Shown here: piece after piece, positions 5,554 to 34,690 of the stretch
Position numbering within the stretch: position 1 is the first letter of the stretch
Layout: every line of letters starts with the position of its first letter
Assembly: GCA_963827685.1 (NCBI GenBank)
Contig: CAWHBU010000002.1
Location: 672,001-736,000 of the forward strand
Length of the DNA stretch: 64,000 nucleotides
From: an uncultured delta proteobacterium
GTDB lineage: Bacteria > Desulfobacterota > BSN033 > UBA1163
Reading direction: 5' to 3'
Program-made: the position numbers and the translations under genes
Notes under the pieces: generated by a model
Seen by the model: only the letters and a program-made list of their open reading frames with translations
Databases searched by the model: none
What the model was told of the DNA's origin: nothing

Positions 5554-6996
5554 TTGAAGCAAAACATCATGGATAAGATCATTTCCGATTTAAGTCTTGG
5601 GATTGAGTTTAAACCGAACCATCTCATTCTCACGCTTCTGAGGAAGTCCTTCCGGAAGATTACGCTCGCGGATTCTGAGATCCATTCACTTCCGTCCGAG
5701 GGTCAGAAGGAAGAGCGGGAGGTACAGATTCTCAACCTCATTAACAAGTTTATCTCTAAACACCGTCTCCATAAGGAGAAGACCTCCATCTCCGTGCCGA
5801 GAGAAAAATCGGTCGTTCGGTTTATTAACCTCCCCATTGCCACCAAAGAAAATCTGAGAAAGGTGATCGAATACGAGGTTCCAAAATATACCCCCTTTGA
5901 AAGGGAGGAAGTCTATTTTGACTGTCAGATCCTCAAGGAGGAAAAAGACTGGCTGCACCTCTATGCCGTTTTCATCAAAAAGACTGAAGTAGATCCCTAT
6001 TTATCTTTGTTAAAGAAGATCGGGATTGACCCGATTTCAATCCAGATCTCGTCTGTAGGAGCCCTTAATCTTTTCTATTATCATGAAGGAGCGAAGGAGG
6101 ATGAAATATCGGTTTTGCTTGATGTGACGGAATCGTTCTTTGAGATGGATCTGATCCAGGGAAAGGAGTGGCAGGAAAGTTTTTATCTCCCCTTATCGGG
6201 GGAAAAGGGAGAATCGAGAATATGGAAGGCCTTTGAGCGATCTGTGGTGAAGCAGGATTCCTTTTCAAAATCGACGTTCTTCGTTCACGGATTAGACACG
6301 GATGAAAACCTTCTGAATGCCGTCAGGGAGAACGATCGGATCAAAGGTGTTTTTCTGCCTCCGTTGCATCGAACCGAAGCCGAAAGAGAAGGGCTTCCTG
6401 CTCTTCATAAAATTTATGGCGCCATCGGCCTCCCTTTAAAGGGGCTGATTAAGACTCAGGTGGATTTAAACCTCCTCCCCTTCGAGATGCGGAGAAAGGT
6501 AAGGGAGTTCGGGAGACCTCTCTCCATCTTGTTAACGTTCGTTGCCTTATTCCTCGCTTTGACCTGGGGAGCGGGCGTTTACTATCGGTACAGCAGAGAA
6601 TTGAACACGCTCAACGCCGAGATCAAAAAGAGAAAGCCTGAAGTCGAGGCTGTCGAAAAACTGCAGAAGCAGAAGGAGGAATTGGGGAAGGAGATCTCTG
6701 AGCTCCTGAAGGTCAGGTCGGAAGAAACGAGTACGATAGAGATAATGAGGGAATTGACCCAGATCTTACCCAATACGGTCTGGATCTGGAGCTTTAAATA
6801 TAACGGGAAAGAGATTGAGATCAGCGGATTTGCAGATTCTGCCTCGGATTTGATCCCCCTGTTGGACAAGTCTCCTCTCTTTGAAAATGTTGAATTTCTG
6901 GCTCCTGTAACGAAGGAGAGACAGATGAGGCCGGATGGGGATAAAGAAAAAGAGAGGTTTAGAATCAAGGCAAAGATAGAGGGCAGGAGAGCATGA
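5554..6996 (+). CDS. GspL/PilM-PilN-like assembly protein
   Basis: Cytoplasmic domain, LNLLP, one TM, coiled coil, PilN-like C-terminal domain; start codon uncertain. Confidence 0.8.
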   Translation: MKQNIMDKIISDLSLGIEFKPNHLILTLLRKSFRKITLADSEIHSLPSEGQKEEREVQILNLINKFISKHRLHKEKTSISVPREKSVVRFINLPIATKENLRKVIEYEVPKYTPFEREEVYFDCQILKEEKDWLHLYAVFIKKTEVDPYLSLLKKIGIDPISIQISSVGALNLFYYHEGAKEDEISVLLDVTESFFEMDLIQGKEWQESFYLPLSGEKGESRIWKAFERSVVKQDSFSKSTFFVHGLDTDENLLNAVRENDRIKGVFLPPLHRTEAEREGLPALHKIYGAIGLPLKGLIKTQVDLNLLPFEMRRKVREFGRPLSILLTFVALFLALTWGAGVYYRYSRELNTLNAEIKKRKPEVEAVEKLQKQKEELGKEISELLKVRSEETSTIEIMRELTQILPNTVWIWSFKYNGKEIEISGFADSASDLIPLLDKSPLFENVEFLAPVTKERQMRPDGDKEKERFRIKAKIEGRRA

Positions 6997-7619
6997 TCTT
7001 GAAGCAGCTATCCTTCTTAAAAAGAATTAACCTTAAAAGAATTAACCTACCTCAGAAAAAGGCGCTCTGGGCGGTTATTGCGGCGGCAGTAGCCATTTTG
7101 ATCTATTTCCTTGGAATCCTTCCTATCGTGGACGCGAAAAGGAAGACAGCGGAGGAGATCGTTCAGAAAAGGAAGCTCCTCTCAAGATATGAGGACTATT
7201 TGAAGAATCGCAAGACCATTGAAGAGGAACTGGATCGCACTCTCAAAGTCCATGGGACGGTTCAACAGAGGCTCCTTCCCGGGGAGACCCCTCAACTGGG
7301 TGCGGCCAATCTTCAGGAGATTGTGAAAAAGCTCTCGGAGAAGAACGGCATTGCGATCAGGAGTTTTAGAATCCTTGAACCGAAAGAGATGCATGTCTAC
7401 CGGAGGATCTCTCTCCATATCGAATTCAACCCGATCAACAGCATGCTGAGCCTGGGCCAATGGATTTATGATATTGAAAACAACGAAAAAGAATTGGGGA
7501 TCTCAGAGATCGATCTTCTGGTGTTCAACCCGAGGATGCCGAACAACATCCAGGGAAGCCTGGTTATCTCCGGCGTGATGAAAGCGGTCAAGGCCAAAGA
7601 GAAAGGGAAGGAAGGATAA
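6993..7619 (+). CDS. GspM/PilO-like protein
   Basis: N-terminal TM, coiled coil, AANLQEIVK; follows the GspL-like gene. Confidence 0.78.
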   Translation: MILKQLSFLKRINLKRINLPQKKALWAVIAAAVAILIYFLGILPIVDAKRKTAEEIVQKRKLLSRYEDYLKNRKTIEEELDRTLKVHGTVQQRLLPGETPQLGAANLQEIVKKLSEKNGIAIRSFRILEPKEMHVYRRISLHIEFNPINSMLSLGQWIYDIENNEKELGISEIDLLVFNPRMPNNIQGSLVISGVMKAVKAKEKGKEG

Positions 7620-27427: not shown

Positions 27428-28100
27428 TCCAGACTCTTGATGGATGTTGTGGGGGAACAAAAAGCGTTGAGATCAAGAAGGCAATCCAGGAGTGGGGACA
27501 AAAGGTTGGAAAAATGTGAACCTCCGTGCTTTAGGAAAGGTATTCTTGATTCAATTTTTCTTCGCTGCTAAGTTCACCACATGCTCGCTTTCAATCGGAA
27601 ATCTTCACTTCTCAAAACAACTCTATCCACACTCTTTGTAGGTGAAGGTTTCAAATTCGGCTTGTGACCGGCGGGATTTGGAAAAAAGAGGACTTCTTCC
27701 TGTAATCTTGTTTTTCGATTTCTGCCCTTCTATGCAACATTACAAAGGGAAATCAGCAATATGAGGTAAATTATGGACGGAATTTTCCCCTTGATTTTCC
27801 ATGCACATGAGAGTATGTTGTATTTATAGTATTTCCCACCTGGCCCTAATTAACTTTACAACTTAACCTCTAACCTTCTTGGGTGCCGTATGAAGAGGAG
27901 ATTCCAGAAGGTGCCCCTATTTCGGTTCCAAAGGGATTCTTATGCCCCTTGGAGCCTTTTTAATTTTTAGATTCTTTTAATGTGTTAGGGGTCCTCCTAT
28001 TAACTCTACTCACAAATTGTGCCCTGACAATCGGGATTAAAAAAAAGGGAGGGGACTTCCGTTTTATCGGGGTTGATCGAATGAAAGGAGGTCGGTGCAA

Positions 28101-28808
28101 ATGAGGGAATTAAGCAAGTTGGACAGGACCTATAATTTCATCCTGAGACGTATGACGGAGACTGGCCAAGCGCCTTTTTATACGGAAATTGCCGCTGAGT
28201 TGAGGGTTTCCGTGGAAGAAGGTCGTAAAGCCCTCCATGATCTCTTTGGAGCGGGAATTCCTGGTTGGCTATTTCCGAATACAGACCTTATCGCTTCTTT
28301 TGCCCCCTTCAACAATCTTCCCAACCAGTACCGGATCACCGTCGAAGGGCAACAGAAGTGGTTTGGTCAGTGAGGGTTTGAGTCGCTGGCGGTCAGCTGG
28401 CTCTTCAAAAGAAAAACAGTGCGGATCGATGCTCCATGTCTTGATTGCGGATCACCCATCCGGGTGGAGATGAAAGATGGTATAATTAAAAATACTGAGC
28501 CCAAAGGGCTGATAGGATACACGTCTGTACCTTTTAAGGAATGGTTCAAAGACCTTCCTTATAGCTGAAGTACCATGAATCTCTTCCGGTCGGAAGAGCA
28601 CATTCGTAATTGGAGCGGTTTCAAATCGGGTACTGAAGAAGGGATCGTTGAATTGTCGGCCGTGGCTAAACTTTTTTCGATTGATGGTTTTAAGAGGCGT
28701 TTGGACCCGGATTATGTTTCCAATTATCAGAAGTATTTAAAGGAATTCATCTCTGCCCTTGGAGAGATGGGGAAAATCCGCCCATTCTGGTCACCGCCGG
28801 GTCCGTAA
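28101..28808 (+). CDS. MerB (organomercurial lyase)-like protein with two in-frame TGA read as selenocysteine (235 aa, U91 and U156)
   Basis: One frame through TGA 28371 and TGA 28566: N-terminal HTH, FAPF, WFGQ-U-GFE, PCLDCG, YS-U-STMNLFRSEEH; hairpin after each TGA. Confidence 0.85.
28380..28403 (+). promoter_or_regulatory. SECIS-like hairpin 1
   Basis: GAGUCGCUGG-CGG-UCAGC(U)GGCUC; loop 16 nt after UGA. Confidence 0.7.
28575..28607 (+). promoter_or_regulatory. SECIS-like hairpin 2
   Basis: AUGAAU-CUCUUCC-GGUC-GGAAGAG-(CAC)-AUUCGU; G-starting loop 19 nt after UGA. Confidence 0.78.
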
Positions 28809-28838: not shown

Positions 28839-28871
28839 GGCGGGGTCAGAAATGGCCCTGCCTCCCTTTTT
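28839..28871 (+). terminator. Probable intrinsic terminator after the MerB-like gene
   Basis: GGCGGGGTCA-GAAA-TGGCCCTGCC then TCCCTTTTT. Confidence 0.6.
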
Positions 28872-29032
28872 GGCTTATGCTTGCTTTCTATTGGTAATCG
28901 TCAGCCTTGAAGATTATCTTGGACCGAAGAGTAGGTAGGTGCTATACGTAACAAAAAGGTGATTGAAAGTTAAGCTTATCAGGTTCATCATCTATCTGTA
29001 TTTCCTATTGATTCAAAGGAAAGGAGATAGAG

Positions 29033-30196
29033 ATGGACCAGAGGGCTATAGAATATTGCAGCGTCATTCCAACGAATGAATCCCTGACGGAATTTAGAAG
29101 TATTGATCGACGGGAGGGGATTCACCCATCCATTTTTTTATCCAAGGCCCATAGAAGAAAATCAGAGAGGCCGTGTTGTCCTGAGCTCGAGGCGAAGGCA
29201 AGAGCGTTTCAATGGGCACTGAATCGGGTTGCAGGCTGGGGCTTGCCGGGAAAAGAGCACGTTGAGGGCTATTTGCGGGACATGTGTAGGCGGGGTCTCA
29301 GGCCAAAAACGTACTTCAGTAACCTGACCGCAATCTATATTTTTCTCACTCTTATTAGAGGTTCCGGAAAGACCCGTTTGGAGGAGATCACCAAGGATGA
29401 TCTGGAGGTTTTTATTGAACATGAGCAGGATCGGGGGTTAATGATATCGACGGTGCGAACAAGGCTTCACTGTGTCAATGCTTTTTTAGGCTATCTGATT
29501 GAAGCAGGTGCGATTCGTAGTAATGTTCTGGCAAGAAGAATTCGTCTGAGGAAGCCCGAGACCTTACCGAGGGCCATAGATCCGGACGATGTGAAAGCAT
29601 TACTTTCTGTTATCAACAATCCCAGAGACCGGGCCATGGTGATGGTGCTTTTACGGACGGGGATGAGAATCGGTGAATTGCTGAGTACCAGGATGCAGGA
29701 TCTTCACCTCAAGGATCGAAGAGTGGATATCTACGAGGGGGAAAAGAACCGCATCGGAAGAGTGGTTTACCTCAGTGAAGATGCCATGCAGGCTTTGAAA
29801 GCCTGGATCAAGGTGAAGGATTCTCATAAAGTATATCTCTTTTATGCGACGGGCAAGAACGCCATGTCCTATACGACCGCACACCTCATGTTCAAAGGCT
29901 ACCTGACGAAAGCCGGTCTTGCCCATAAGGGGTATTGCCTCCATGCCCTACGACATACGTTTGCCAGTGAGCTTTTAAATGCCGGTATGCGCCTCGAATG
30001 CCTCCAACCGCTGATGGGGCATACCTCTGTGGATGTGACGCGGCGCTATGCGCGGCTCACGGATAAGACCAGAGAGCAAGAGTACTTCAGAGCCATGACG
30101 ATTATAGAAAGGGGGGAGCTGAATGGATCTTACCGACTCGATCATCAGGTACAGGCGTTTCTTGAAGAGAAGGAACGTCTCACCGAATACCGTTAA
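29033..30196 (+). CDS. Tyrosine recombinase A
   Basis: RTGMRIGE, HALRH, MGH, TRRY. Confidence 0.93.
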   Translation: MDQRAIEYCSVIPTNESLTEFRSIDRREGIHPSIFLSKAHRRKSERPCCPELEAKARAFQWALNRVAGWGLPGKEHVEGYLRDMCRRGLRPKTYFSNLTAIYIFLTLIRGSGKTRLEEITKDDLEVFIEHEQDRGLMISTVRTRLHCVNAFLGYLIEAGAIRSNVLARRIRLRKPETLPRAIDPDDVKALLSVINNPRDRAMVMVLLRTGMRIGELLSTRMQDLHLKDRRVDIYEGEKNRIGRVVYLSEDAMQALKAWIKVKDSHKVYLFYATGKNAMSYTTAHLMFKGYLTKAGLAHKGYCLHALRHTFASELLNAGMRLECLQPLMGHTSVDVTRRYARLTDKTREQEYFRAMTIIERGELNGSYRLDHQVQAFLEEKERLTEYR

Positions 30197-31016
30197 GCAC
30201 TATTTAAACAGTCTGAAGCACTTTGTTCTCTGGCTGGATGAGCCGATCGAAAAGGTCACCTACAGAAAGGTTGACGAGTATATGGATGACCTGCTTGGAA
30301 AACGGCTAAAACCTAAGACCGTCAACTGTTATCTCAACAGCATCTGTCAGTTTTACCACTACCTCTGCGAAGAAGAGGGACTCCGGATCGTCAACCCTGT
30401 GAAGAAGCCAAATATCATGAAGCTTCCCAGAGGGCTTCCCAAACATCTGAGAGACGAGCACATAGAGATCCTCTTCAAGCATCTGAAAGGGCGAAGGGAT
30501 CAGGCCATCTTCACGCTCATGCTCCGATGCGGATTACGGGTAGAAGAAGTGGCTCACCTTTCCCTCAGCAATATTGATCTGAAACGCAGAATGCTGCTCA
30601 TCCAGGATGGCAAGGGTGCGAAGGATCGGATTGTCTATCTCAGCAACGATGCCCTTCATGCTCTCCTGGAATATCTAAGGGTGCGACCCGCAAATAAAGT
30701 AAGAAAGGTTTTTCTTGTAGAGAAAGGGCCTCTCAGCGGGCAACCTTTATCCATTCGCGGCATCCAGAAACGGATGGAATATTATGCCCGCAAAACAAAC
30801 TTGAGAATCTCCTGCCACCATCTTCGCCATACGATGGCAACGCAGATGTTGAATGCGGATGCGGACCTCTCTACCATCCAGGATCTTTTGGGGCATAACT
30901 CTATCAGGACGACCCAACGCTACTGCCGGGTATCAAACCTCAAAGTACAGAGAGATTACTACAAAGCCATGGAGGTGATCATGCAACGAACGGCTGGCAA
31001 CCCAAATAATCCTTGA
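30123..31016 (+). CDS. Tyrosine recombinase B (XerC/D-like)
   Basis: RCGLRVEE, GKG, HHLRH, LGH, TQRY; 74-bp overlap with A. Confidence 0.93.
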   Translation: MDLTDSIIRYRRFLKRRNVSPNTVKHYLNSLKHFVLWLDEPIEKVTYRKVDEYMDDLLGKRLKPKTVNCYLNSICQFYHYLCEEEGLRIVNPVKKPNIMKLPRGLPKHLRDEHIEILFKHLKGRRDQAIFTLMLRCGLRVEEVAHLSLSNIDLKRRMLLIQDGKGAKDRIVYLSNDALHALLEYLRVRPANKVRKVFLVEKGPLSGQPLSIRGIQKRMEYYARKTNLRISCHHLRHTMATQMLNADADLSTIQDLLGHNSIRTTQRYCRVSNLKVQRDYYKAMEVIMQRTAGNPNNP

Positions 31017-31269
31017 CATGAGAAAGAAATTATGAAAACTTAAACACTACGCAACATCATAATATCAATAGTAAATACGGATTATGTTACGTATAGGTAG
31101 GTGAAAGTTTCAAGCTGGACTTGTGACTGGCGAGACTTAGGAAGAATGTGGATTTCTTCCTGAAAGAGTGATTTTCAAATCTCGCCACAAAATAGAATCT
31201 TTCAAGCAGTAATCGATACGAATGGAACATAATGGAGGTATGTGGTGTTTCTCATCCTCATAAATTGAT

Positions 31270-31875
31270 CTACTTTCTTATCAGCAGCCATAATCCCCCT
31301 TCAGAGACGATTTCCACTTTTCCCTTCACATTGCTCATCGAGATACCTTGCCATAACTGATCTTCATTTACTTCGATCTTACCGATCTTGAGGTTAAGAT
31401 CCCGTGATCTCTTTCCGATTTTCTTAATCACAGTCTCAGGGGTGAACTTCCCGAACCCTCCACCAATAAACGCCATTCCATTCTTCCTCAGAATCCCAAA
31501 GATCGCTGAAAAGTTGACCTCAAACAAAGAAGGAAAGAAAAAGGCTCCTCGAAAGATGGCCAGATCAATTCTATTTTCGTCTACCCCGCTCAAGGAAGGA
31601 TCTGATTCAATGACCTCGATTTTGTCCTCAGCTTTCTGTTTCCTTGCTTCTTCACGGAAAAAATCGCCCATTCCTGGCGGAAAGGTTGCGATCAAAAAAG
31701 AGCGGCCTATCCCTTGTCTTAGCAAGGCAAAGATTGAACCACAAAAGGGACCTATTTCCAGAATATTTCCGTCTTGACGACCGTAGAGCTCATGGATGTG
31801 TCGTGCTAAATATGGATAAACCGGATCCCAGAGGCGATCAATCTCTTTAATAAGATCTAAATTTACAGATGTCAT
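31270..31875 (-). CDS. Class I SAM-dependent methyltransferase-like protein
   Basis: ILEIGPFCG (degenerate motif I), IDLAIFRG, G.AFIGGGFG. Confidence 0.6.
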   Translation of the reverse strand: MTSVNLDLIKEIDRLWDPVYPYLARHIHELYGRQDGNILEIGPFCGSIFALLRQGIGRSFLIATFPPGMGDFFREEARKQKAEDKIEVIESDPSLSGVDENRIDLAIFRGAFFFPSLFEVNFSAIFGILRKNGMAFIGGGFGKFTPETVIKKIGKRSRDLNLKIGKIEVNEDQLWQGISMSNVKGKVEIVSEGGLWLLIRK

Positions 31876-31945: not shown

Positions 31946-32797
31946 TTATAGAGAAGGCTCGGTGATCAGCCGAAGTACAGCCTGTTCTAATCGCTCCTGG
32001 AAGGTCTTCCCCTCATGGTTCATGATGGACCGAGCCAACAGGGAGAGAGTCTCCTGCTCCCTTTTGGAAAGCCATGCGTAGGCTTCATTCCATTGATTTC
32101 TGAGGGCTTGAGCCTCTTCAATTCCGGCGGAAATCAATCCCTCGATAGGAAGAAGTGTTTTAAGGAAAGCCGCAAAAGCTATTTTCCTCAGGGGAGGAGA
32201 GCCTTGAACGACCTCCCAGATACGGTGCTCCTCTTCAGTATCGGAAATGATGTGCTTGAGAAGGACCTGCTGGCTGAAACCAAGGCCTATTTTGGCAAGC
32301 CACTGCATCACTTCCCGATCTTTAATGGCCACTGAGAGGAGGTAGACACTTTGTTGAAGAAGGGATAGATTAAAACCACAGGAAATTCCCGCCTCCTGAA
32401 GCTTGCTTGAGAAACGAAAGGTGTAGAATTCCAGGGTGCCGTGGTGTAAGGCATGGCCGATCTCATGGTGAATAACACCCTGAATGATCACGCTAGGGAT
32501 TCCTATCAGCCTTTCTTCGCAAACATGAATCCTCGGATAACCTCTCCATGCGTCATGGGTGGCCAGGAAATCCGTCTCTTCTCCCGTCACAATGCCGAGT
32601 TCCTTCTTTTCTCTCTGACAGAAGGCTTGAAATTCCTTCATCGTCTTCCAAATCCTTACGCACAGAAGAGGAGGCGGAGATGGAAACTCTGCCATTTCCA
32701 GAACCTCGTTGGCCCACAATCGAACCTGGGTCAAGAAGCTCTCGTCTATCTTCTCGTGGGCTACCATTTGAATCTGCGTGCCCATTCGACAACTCAT
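31946..32797 (-). CDS. Hypothetical protein with HExxH motif (possible metallopeptidase)
   Basis: IHHEIGHALHH. Confidence 0.65.
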   Translation of the reverse strand: MSCRMGTQIQMVAHEKIDESFLTQVRLWANEVLEMAEFPSPPPLLCVRIWKTMKEFQAFCQREKKELGIVTGEETDFLATHDAWRGYPRIHVCEERLIGIPSVIIQGVIHHEIGHALHHGTLEFYTFRFSSKLQEAGISCGFNLSLLQQSVYLLSVAIKDREVMQWLAKIGLGFSQQVLLKHIISDTEEEHRIWEVVQGSPPLRKIAFAAFLKTLLPIEGLISAGIEEAQALRNQWNEAYAWLSKREQETLSLLARSIMNHEGKTFQERLEQAVLRLITEPSL

Positions 32798-32915
32798 CTC
32801 CTTTTATCCGGGATATGGGGGCCAATATGACCAAAGGGAGTCTGACAAAGAACGGTGGAGAGACCGGTTCCCCGAAGGAAATGGTAGACCTCTACCATCT
32901 CCTGATAGGAAGGTT

Positions 32916-34361
32916 GAGTCAATACCTTTTTTAGTTGAAATTCGATAATGGCTCCTTGTTGAGTTCATCAGGCCGCCTCCGCCACCTTCGGCATTTCTTG
33001 TTTTCCTCCCTGTCTCGCAATCTCCCTCTGGATAGAAATTCTTAACTGTGGAAGATATCTGTAACCCTTGACCTTTCTAAGTCTCGGCTCAATATCTAAA
33101 AGGGCTGCGGCTAACCACCGATGCTTCTGATCACTATTCTTCCAATAATCGACCTTGTCGGTCTTCTGACCAATGAGCGCCATCAAGGATTCGATACAGT
33201 TCGTGGTTTTAAAGCTGATTCCACATTCTCTAAGGAGTCCCAAACGATGCAGCGTCAAGGTCTCTTCACATCCTTCGTCTAAACTATTGACCGCCGATCG
33301 GTTGAGCAGCTGCAGTTCCTTACGAATCTTTAACAGTCTCTCCTTCGCCCTTTCATAGATGGGCTCCTCATAGGCCTCTTGAAGCTTCCGCCTCATCGAA
33401 GCCTGCATCGCCTTCGGAAGATAACTCACCACATTCTCCCGCTTGTGCCACTGGCATCGCTGCACCAAGGCTTTATTCCCAAAAACTTCATACACCGCTT
33501 TCCTCAACCCTTTCGATCCATCAATCACACATAAAAACCCTTCTTCCATCTCTAGCCCACGCTCCAGCAACCCCTGGAGCATTTCCCGGCCAACCCGCTC
33601 ATTCTCCGTCCCCGCCTGAATAAATCCTAAAAGAATCTTCTCCCCTTTGACGGTAATCCCCAATACCAAAATCATCTCATCTGCACCAAAACTCTTCCCA
33701 TCCAGAATCAATGCTACAAAATCATACCCCTCCAATCGACGCTCGCAAAGCTCCTTGAGCGCTTTTGCGCTGACTCGAATGTATCGCCTCGAAATCGTCG
33801 AACCACTCAAACCAAAAGCCTCCGGCACCGCTTCCGCACACTCCTCATAGTTCCGACAACTTAATCCATGGAGAACTCGTCTCAATACCCCTTCATCTGC
33901 CCCACGAGGCTCCTGTAACCGCTCATAACTCTTTAACCGTACCTCTTTCCCCCCACGCCTATCTCTCACCCTTGGCACCAAGATCGGAAGCTTCTGATCC
34001 GATAGATAAACTGACCCCCCTTGGCTCCCCCAACGATCATACCCAGGAACCCCCCGGCGCTTATATCTTTCCCCAGCTAAACTTCTGACTTCTTCCTCCA
34101 AAACCTCCTTCACATGCCACAACCCTACGGGGATCAATGCCTGGATTAACTCTATCTTCATATCCACATCCATCTGCTTCAATCCCCTATCACAAATCTC
34201 TTTCACCCGCGCCCGCCTAACCTTGACACCTCTACCAATCCGTAATATCTTCTCCATCACTGGCTCCTTTCTTGGTGGTTTTTCTTTTTCTTCCCAAAGT
34301 AAGAGATTACCACCATTTTAGGAGCCACTTCTCAAATTTCAACTAAATTTAGCACACCCTC
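32916..34361 (-). mobile_element. IS256-family insertion sequence (1446 bp), 8-bp target duplication GGAAGGTT
   Basis: 27-bp imperfect IRs GAG...TTTAGTTGAAATT; GGAAGGTT at 32908-32915 and 34362-34369. Confidence 0.93.
32968..34260 (-). CDS. IS256/Mutator family DDE transposase
   Basis: VPRVRDR, LDG, IDGSKGL, QRCQWH, TTNCIES. Confidence 0.93.
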   Translation of the reverse strand: MMEKILRIGRGVKVRRARVKEICDRGLKQMDVDMKIELIQALIPVGLWHVKEVLEEEVRSLAGERYKRRGVPGYDRWGSQGGSVYLSDQKLPILVPRVRDRRGGKEVRLKSYERLQEPRGADEGVLRRVLHGLSCRNYEECAEAVPEAFGLSGSTISRRYIRVSAKALKELCERRLEGYDFVALILDGKSFGADEMILVLGITVKGEKILLGFIQAGTENERVGREMLQGLLERGLEMEEGFLCVIDGSKGLRKAVYEVFGNKALVQRCQWHKRENVVSYLPKAMQASMRRKLQEAYEEPIYERAKERLLKIRKELQLLNRSAVNSLDEGCEETLTLHRLGLLRECGISFKTTNCIESLMALIGQKTDKVDYWKNSDQKHRWLAAALLDIEPRLRKVKGYRYLPQLRISIQREIARQGGKQEMPKVAEAA

Positions 34362-34690
34362 GGAAGGTTTGCCATCGAGGTAAATGGTGATGGTTTCCCA
34401 CGAAGGTCTTTCTTCCATTTTTACAGGTCATAAGGGCATGAGACATGACACGCTTGACAGCCGACGCAAGACACATACCGGCAAATCCACTTTCCACAAT
34501 ATTGGCAATCTTGACAGAGATTAGGATCTCTTTTTGAAATCTAAGGGGCCATAGCTGAAAATGATTTTATCACCCATTTGAGATGAAGTCATCTCTCGTT
34601 ATATAATGTTTATCGGCAAGGCATTCTGCAACGAATGGGCTGGAGAGATTACAGTACGTTTAGTTAAGGTTAAGTTTTTCTGAACTATCT

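Follow-up and report, generated by a model that had tools for sequence, protein, structure and literature searches.

A MerB-family gene with two in-frame UGA codons, predicted to encode selenocysteine in both mercury-ligand columns, in an uncultured member of the Desulfobacterota

The window analysed here is a 64,000-nt stretch of DNA (positions 672,001-736,000 of contig CAWHBU010000002.1, assembly GCA_963827685.1) from an uncultured delta proteobacterium with the GTDB lineage Bacteria; Desulfobacterota; BSN033; UBA1163. It carries a gene of the family of the lyase MerB that contains two in-frame TGA codons, both of which are predicted to be read as selenocysteine (Sec, U). The open reading frames (ORFs) 28095-28373 and 28575-28808 lie in a common frame, the 64 codons between the two TGAs are open, and translation from the ATG at position 28101 with TGA read as U yields 235 residues with U91 and U156 (Table 1). 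Residue numbers used below count from this ATG (U91, E94, C113, D115, C116, U156), and the numbering of the protein record P0001 is higher by two. The ATG at 28101, and not the GTG at 28095, is assigned as the start because the ribosome-binding site (RBS) and the ATG, aligned as GAAAGGAGG followed by ATG, are retained in all nine close relatives compared; a hairpin comparable to the one downstream of the gene is present in most of these nine. A fragment of the molybdenum-cofactor (Moco) riboswitch that Rfam placed on this terminator (E 0.07) was dismissed. A previous sequence-only reading of the locus had joined the two ORFs into a single 235-residue gene with an RBS, a TAA stop and a terminator and had expected gene callers to split it. 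The coordinates and the nine relatives agree with this gene model, and public databases indeed hold many fragments of 91, 63 and 77 residues that are bounded by the TGA points and are called hypothetical proteins.

Table 1 Features of the two-TGA MerB-like locus and its surroundings, in window coordinates.
Feature	Position	Strand	Remarks
Left ~80-nt direct repeat	27638-27716	+	Starts GTAGGTGAA; part of a dispersed intergenic repeat reaching ~27960
RBS	28085-28091	+	AAGGAGG; 9 nt upstream of ATG 28101
Whole two-Sec (predicted) MerB-like gene	28101-28808	+	235 codons; ATG 28101, TAA 28806-28808
First in-frame TGA (TGA1, site 1)	28371-28373	+	Predicted Sec91; column of MerB Cys96
SECIS-like hairpin 1	28377-28409	+	6-bp core stem 28385-28390/28396-28401; loop GGUCA 28391-28395
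Second in-frame TGA (TGA2, site 2)	28566-28568	+	Predicted Sec156; column of MerB Cys159
SECIS-like hairpin 2	28575-28607	+	7-bp upper stem 28581-28587/28592-28598; loop GGUC 28588-28591
Intrinsic-terminator-like hairpin and T run	28839-28872	+	End of the single-gene unit; hairpin itself 28839-28862
Two-recombinase element (neighbour of the gene)	28934-31105	+	2172 bp; overlapping tyrosine-recombinase genes 29033-30196 and 30123-31016
Right ~80-nt direct repeat	31097-31176	+	Directly after the recombinase element; 75-78% identity to the left copy
IS256/Mutator-family insertion sequence (neighbour)	32914-34363	-	Transposase_mut E 1e-29; 6 copies, 99.9-100% identity

Membership of the MerB family is indicated by a match to the Pfam model MerB (PF03243) with 61.8 bits against a gathering cut-off of 27 (E 8e-17, residues 74-190 of P0001); in the host genome, this model matched exactly two genes, namely the window gene and a second gene with Sec predicted at both sites (U/U). 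Searched against solved structures, the single sequence gave weak matches to MerB2 and MerB, and a profile of 89 family members matched MerB2 (5c17) at E 9e-11 and MerB (3f2g, 1s6l and others) at E about 5e-5 to 2e-4. The structure alignments pair U91 with Cys96, Glu94 with Asp99, Cys113 with Cys117 and U156 with Cys159, and U91 and U156 are 65 residues apart, compared with 63 for their counterparts in MerB. In MerB, Cys96 and Cys159 are described as coordinating R-Hg+, upon which a proton from Asp99 frees R-H while Hg(II) remains on both thiolates, and Cys117 is buried and structural (PMC10114901). The family has an invariant cysteine in the Cys117 column (C113, C115 of P0001) and TGA in the columns of the two ligand cysteines, whose ligand role is probably kept with selenium replacing sulfur. 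Invariant in the 89 members are G, A, P, A, T, S, P, F, W, U91, E94, C113, D115, C116, P, U156, F and Y.

The characterised MerB of plasmid R831b (1s6l, 3f0o, 3f0p, 3f2f) and MerB2 of Bacillus megaterium (5c17) belong to the same Pfam family; they align with the window protein in the three catalytic columns and at the buried Cys117, and they are similar to it in length and in the N-terminal region. They differ from it in having Cys/Asp/Cys where the family studied here has Sec/Glu/Sec, and the latter also has a CxxC at the position of Cys117 and a further conserved stretch at its C-terminus that ends in PFW. Of the annotated proteins matched in a search of 72,556 plasmids, the best is MerBA, a bifunctional lyase/mercuric reductase of alphaproteobacterial plasmids (e.g. 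pSinA, NC_021209), whose MerB domain is 26% identical (E 4e-15) and aligns C with U91, D with E94, CxxC with CxxC and C with U156. Unlike the window gene, MerBA has the Cys and Asp residues, is fused to MerA and lies in a mer operon with merT. Both the profile and the MerBA alignments thus reproduce the correspondence of U91, E94 and U156 to Cys96, Asp99 and Cys159 that had been proposed from the window alone, as had the spacing of 65 versus 63.

A second two-TGA copy of the gene is located in the host genome at C3:1235448-1236146 (locus L015, 66% identity to the window copy). It looks like a vertically kept copy, since it groups with copies from other genomes of the same taxonomic family; an IS200-like copy was observed ~1 kb downstream of it. 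Matches were found in 19 of 61 related genomes searched, and 23 of the 27 matches have two in-frame TGA codons; of the remaining four, three are fragments from copies that are broken or lie at a contig end, and one, a distant homologue, has a single TGA. A scan of species-representative genomes returned 80 loci that are 58-80% identical, and reading every fetched locus resulted in 89 distinct gene copies. Site 1 is TGA in 88 of these and TGC in one (L064); site 2 is likewise TGA in 88, the exception being the frameshifted L033 (G014). When 401 genomes evenly sampled over the phylum were searched, 43 gave a match at E 1e-20 or better, and in 38 of them a match contains two or more in-frame TGAs. 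Many oxygen-avoiding sediment bacteria carry the two-TGA form of the gene.

Homologues that were read from DNA hold Cys or TGA in both columns and no other residue, and distant full-length relatives have Cys in both columns and either Glu or Asp at +3. Among 15 database proteins that were fetched, three are full-length with Cys in both columns (C/C), five have Cys at site 1 and end at site 2 (155-156 residues), six have W in both columns and one has W followed by a stop; we take the double W as the product of gene callers using a TGA=Trp code on short contigs. A sister group on metagenome contigs (loci L147-L226) combines a Cys codon at site 1 with TGA at site 2 (C/U) in 78 of 80 loci; these sequences apparently come from high-GC soil-type organisms and are stored publicly as truncated proteins of 155 residues. 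In a quick tree, the C/C protein P0027 and L064 with its TGC at site 1 fall inside the U/U group, and the window copy and its paralogue belong to different subgroups, that of the window copy being patchily distributed. One Desulfobacteraceae metagenome-assembled genome has two such genes in tandem (L049:5769-6458 and 6649-7344), again from different subgroups.

Purifying selection acts on all three segments of the gene: the median ratio of nonsynonymous to synonymous substitution rates (dN/dS) is 0.105 for the segment ahead of TGA1, 0.157 for the middle segment and 0.199 for the one that follows TGA2, with the medians resting on 1058, 2267 and 2269 of 3828 pairs, respectively, the others being saturated or skipped. 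These results bear on the explanation that the TGAs are true stops, either in a decayed gene or as the borders of three small genes of 92, 49-64 and 77 residues. Translation table 11 does split the frame in three, the public 91-, 63- and 77-residue pieces end or start at the TGA points, and the relative L033 is genuinely frameshifted. Yet each column holds TGA, and never TAA or TAG, in 88 of the 89 copies, down to 43% identity; all three segments are under purifying selection; the MerB homology crosses both TGAs; and the unit as a whole has a single RBS and a single terminator, with no RBS of its own for the middle piece. We consider decay or a set of three genes the least probable of the explanations weighed here.

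Each TGA is followed by a hairpin resembling a bacterial selenocysteine insertion sequence (SECIS). The loops start 17 nt past TGA1 and 19 nt past TGA2, both hairpins contain CGGUC, and a G is present in the apical loop; the sequence-only reading had described these two stem-loops and the shared CGGUC, with loop distances of 16 and 19 nt. The SECIS of Escherichia coli fdhF likewise shows G and U in the apical loop at about this distance. Over 85 distinct sequences, 99.4% of the 510 cells of stem 1 are paired, compared with 12-60% in slid controls; an additional outer stem of hairpin 1 (28377-28382/28404-28409) is present in the subclade of the window copy only. The upper stem of hairpin 2 is paired in 97.3% and shows 23 cells with two-sided changes versus 14.7 in shuffles, none of 500 shuffles reaching 23. 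The two-sided changes fall on pairs 15-37 (UA 25, CG 18, UG 9, other 23) and 16-33 (CG 57, UA 5, UG 1, other 12), and the hairpin is completed by a lower stem of 6 bp (28575-28580/28602-28607). The constraint is visible in codon usage as well: synonymous-codon entropy is ~83% of its maximum gene-wide and collapses at codons +4 to +9 past each TGA; among 192 windows of six codons, the ten with the lowest values all start 3-5 codons past TGA1 or 1-7 codons past TGA2, and within the gene this entropy is lowest at hairpin 2.

The comparison with forms that have cysteine at site 1 separates the two hairpins. In the C/U sister loci, hairpin 2 is retained almost to the letter, and the columns of hairpin 1 are paired in 135 of 300 cells (45%); in L064, which is nested among U/U genes, two stem positions of hairpin 1 are altered. 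Since hairpin 1 is absent or altered where site 1 is a Cys codon, the hairpins track the UGA and not the protein. When the genome was scanned for hairpins with a GGUC loop downstream of open in-frame TGAs, six matches resulted, four of which are the sites of the window gene and its paralogue themselves; the other two appear to be chance matches (0-4 were obtained with control loops); GGUC is thus not the general SECIS loop of the host, and the hairpin of the host selD is unlike those with the GGUC loop.

The host genome encodes the machinery for Sec insertion, with selA (630 bits), selB (357 bits) and selD (384 bits) over cut-off, the selD gene itself carrying one TGA. A tRNA-Sec at C3:1143951 is the sole tRNA with the anticodon UCA, tRNA-Trp is present with CCA only, and TGA ends 494 of 1285 long open frames, which together exclude a variant genetic code. 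In the phylum sample, selA was found in 369 of 401 genomes and in 35 of the 38 two-TGA carriers. Decoding of the TGAs as Trp, Gly or Cys, by a variant code or by near-cognate read-through, could appeal to the full-length public versions with W in both columns (the six of 15 mentioned above), but it conflicts with the tRNA set and the use of TGA as a stop, with the full Sec machinery of the host, with Cys being the residue that alternates with TGA in both columns of the DNA-verified homologues, and with the disappearance of the hairpin once the codon is Cys. We regard this explanation as very improbable, if marginally less so than a decayed gene.

Some observations count against Sec decoding at the two sites. 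Folding of the single sequences is no better than that of shuffles (z 0.70 for hairpin 1 and -1.43 for hairpin 2), so the case for the hairpins rests on the comparative data; a search of Rfam matched neither hairpin to SECIS or any other family; and hairpin 1 shows no compensatory double changes in the 85 sequences, as it hardly varies. Moreover, no selA match at E 1e-80 was obtained in 3 of the 38 carriers, which are drafts of 99, 90 and 79% completeness. Weighing these points against the conservation, the Cys pairing and the hairpins that follow the UGA, we judge it very probable that positions 28101-28808 encode one cytosolic MerB-family protein in which both UGAs are translated as Sec by SelA, SelB, SelC and SelD, each directed by its own GGUC-loop hairpin. 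The sequence-only reading had tied its proposal in advance to the residues that homologues hold in the two columns, to conservation of the TGAs, to Sec machinery in the host and to purifying selection on the middle segment, and each of these came out in its favour.

Possible signs of transcription come from metatranscriptome contigs of relatives (80-92% alike) that span TGA1 (28167-28409) and TGA2 (28527-28679). These bridging contigs are a weak hint, as they stem from one library, which may contain DNA. In a search of sequencing runs, half of the gene's words were reached in no run.

A selenoprotein with the MerB fold has been described before. SaoL (NCBIfam NF040728, 'selenocysteine-assisted organometallic lyase'; Haft & Gwadz, bioRxiv 10.1101/2022.07.06.499078) is a MerB-family selenoprotein of anaerobes that is truncated at its UGA by gene callers and has Sec in the Cys159 column, and its authors doubt that mercury alone is the substrate. 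SaoL has one Sec, within a CU dipeptide, and Cys and Asp at the first site, whereas the family described here has predicted Sec in both ligand columns, Glu as the acid and the motifs Q-U-G-F-E and (S/A)-U-S-T-M, with no CU. SaoL also marks a nine-gene SAO locus, in contrast to the window gene, which has no conserved neighbours (as judged from neighbour clusters, with no genome search for the single Sao families), and a search of 201 genomes of the phylum gave no SaoL match above cut-off. Closer to the window protein are the single-Sec sister forms from soil and other metagenomes (P0113-like), with 52-60% identity and the same Glu, CxxC and second SECIS-like hairpin; they differ by their Cys codon at site 1, where the hairpin is lacking. 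These forms fall below the SaoL and MerB cut-offs, and we found no description of them in the literature.

That a Sec-containing MerB-like protein might already have been reported, as the sequence-only reading cautioned, thus applies to the one-Sec SaoL, which is the only entry for the MerB fold in Table 1 (119 families) of a 2026 review of prokaryotic selenoproteins (PMC13188914). A two-Sec MerB was not found in that table or in full-text literature searches, which did not cover supplements, and the curated models of NCBIfam do not claim the protein. Judged from its sequence, the window gene encodes a genuine two-selenocysteine MerB-family protein that is distinct from SaoL.

By analogy with MerB, a lyase mechanism with two selenolates and Glu94 can be outlined. 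The selenolates of Sec91 and Sec156 would bind a soft metal bearing a carbon ligand, with CH3Hg+ as the leading candidate substrate and other organometals or organometalloids as further possibilities. The double coordination would weaken the metal-carbon bond, and Glu94 would protonate the leaving carbon; the hydrocarbon would then be released, with the metal staying on the Se-M-Se site. The enzyme would probably work alone and pass the metal to cellular thiols or sulfide. We put this mechanism forward tentatively, with slightly less than even confidence in its details; as an account of the locus as a whole, a two-Sec MerB-family protein with such a proposed lyase action is likely to be the best explanation.

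Several findings weigh against lyase activity. The Asp99 column holds Glu, an acid longer by one methylene, in 89 of 89 aligned members. The MerB equivalog models of NCBIfam are far from being reached (NF009710, 21.4 versus 193 bits; NF033555, 17 versus 200 bits), and so is the SaoL cut-off of 140, with 35.8 bits for P0001, 37.4 for the paralogue and 33.6 for a C/U form. The window gene lies outside any mer operon, and a search of the host genome gave no merA above cut-off, as the sequence-only reading had noted for the neighbourhood. Across the 89 loci no conserved partner gene was found, the largest real cluster (sensor kinases) comprising 11. A Hg(Se)2 product is expected to be very stable and hard to release. 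With regard to mercury, hgcA is without a match in 17 of the 38 carriers, and its association with carriage, described below, is uncorrected for relatedness.

Several of these points speak for the main rival, in which the protein is a real two-Sec MerB-fold protein without lyase activity, that is, a scavenger, chaperone or sensor of soft metals (Hg, Cd, Cu, As) or a diselenide/selenol redox protein, for which the MerB fold would merely supply a two-ligand pocket. The lack of a mer operon, merA and conserved partners and the uniform replacement of Asp by Glu would fit such a role, two selenolates would hold Hg(II) so tightly that sequestration appears to fit better than turnover, and the N-terminal 70 residues have faint matches to Pfam families of helix-turn-helix type (E 0.13-0.26). 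MerB variants with a changed acid residue are capable of copper binding, and a native form with Ser at position 99 is much less active (PMC10114901). Against this rival, the catalytic set of MerB (two chalcogen ligands, an acid at +3 and a buried Cys) is retained and invariant down to 43% identity, the closest annotated homologue is the lyase domain of the mer-operon MerBA, and the conserved acid would be superfluous in a mere binder. We hold a non-lyase role to be the less likely alternative, though one to be taken seriously.

The lineage of the host carries hgcA, the gene of the mercury-methylation corrinoid protein. In the 61 relatives, hgcA over cut-off was present in 14 of 19 carriers of the MerB-like gene versus 16 of 42 non-carriers, and in the phylum sample in 21 of 38 carriers versus 101 of 363 others, an approximately twofold association (kinship ignored in both comparisons). 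The Sec trait does not account for this difference because selA is present in 369 of the 401 genomes. The association links the gene to mercury, if weakly. The two genes are unlinked: the distance between them is 11 kb in one genome, and in three others in which they share a contig it is 136-620 kb. In the host, hgcA (C4:643082-644610) is split by a 546-bp IS200-like element with ~18 identical copies in the genome, and the organism may therefore have lost methylation. A still bolder reading is that the two-Sec MerB-like protein represents a mer-independent demethylase of strict anaerobes for methylmercury, or for organometals more broadly: a stand-alone enzyme with which Hg-methylating organisms of the Desulfobacterota type would cleave the Hg-C bond without MerA. 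We offer this as a speculation of low probability.

The neighbours of the window gene encode a sensor kinase, a GGDEF regulator, a PilZ protein and recombinases. Two neighbour clusters larger than that of the sensor kinases (36 and 15 loci) turned out to be out-of-frame ORFs of the MerB-like gene itself and were discarded. The two-recombinase element has 11-bp terminal inverted repeats (CTATACGTAAC and GTTACGTATAG) with GGTAGGTG at either end, and occurs in three copies in the genome (99.8-100% identity), each with different flanks; the other copies lack the MerB-like gene. Such multi-copy elements are abundant in this genome. As the stop codon lies 126 bp before this element, the MerB-like gene is a neighbour and not cargo. 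The claim of the sequence-only reading that the gene is carried on a mobile island was not supported in this form, the gene lying beside, and not inside, two multi-copy elements.

The MerB-like gene and the recombinase element together are bracketed by the two ~80-nt repeats, which have the same orientation. The longer dispersed repeat, to which the left ~80-nt repeat belongs, recurs within ~1 kb of the closest homologues in L035, L038, L041 and partly L036, and has copies elsewhere in the host genome and in genomes of the genus; a search of Rfam gave no match to it. It may be the target of the recombinase element or a cassette boundary, and the flanking repeats, together with the patchy distribution of the window copy's subgroup, are circumstantially compatible with a mobile, repeat-bounded cassette. 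Among the 72,556 plasmids, the five weak matches were to MerBA, and phages gave none; no close relative was found on a known plasmid or phage. Two minus-strand ORFs, 31270-31875 (201 residues) and 31946-32797 (283 residues), lie in the interval from the recombinase element to the IS256-family copy and gave no match in Pfam and NCBIfam searches; the former has a paralogue of 73% DNA identity at C1:261434-262032.

For selenium biology, the family offers a clean natural series of C/C, C/U and U/U forms in which a SECIS-like hairpin comes and goes with its UGA. For the mercury cycle, degradation counts as much as formation in setting net methylmercury in sediments and wetlands, and the mechanisms of mer-independent anaerobic demethylation are described as remaining obscure (PMC10114901). 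A MerB-fold protein predicted to have two selenolates is encoded in about one in ten genomes of a large anaerobic phylum (38 of 401) and is about twice as common where hgcA is present, and this frequency and enrichment make it a concrete candidate for cloning and assay. Surveys of merB that require Cys96 and Cys159 (R831b numbering) together with Asp99 (Christakis et al. 2021, PMC8261052) miss the family. If the protein should prove to be a mer-independent demethylase, it would have been overlooked by all merB surveys, through the splitting of its gene at the UGAs and the absence of the Cys/Asp/Cys signature, and it would serve as a marker gene for some of the anaerobic methylmercury degradation in sediments, peat and wetlands that is so far unexplained.

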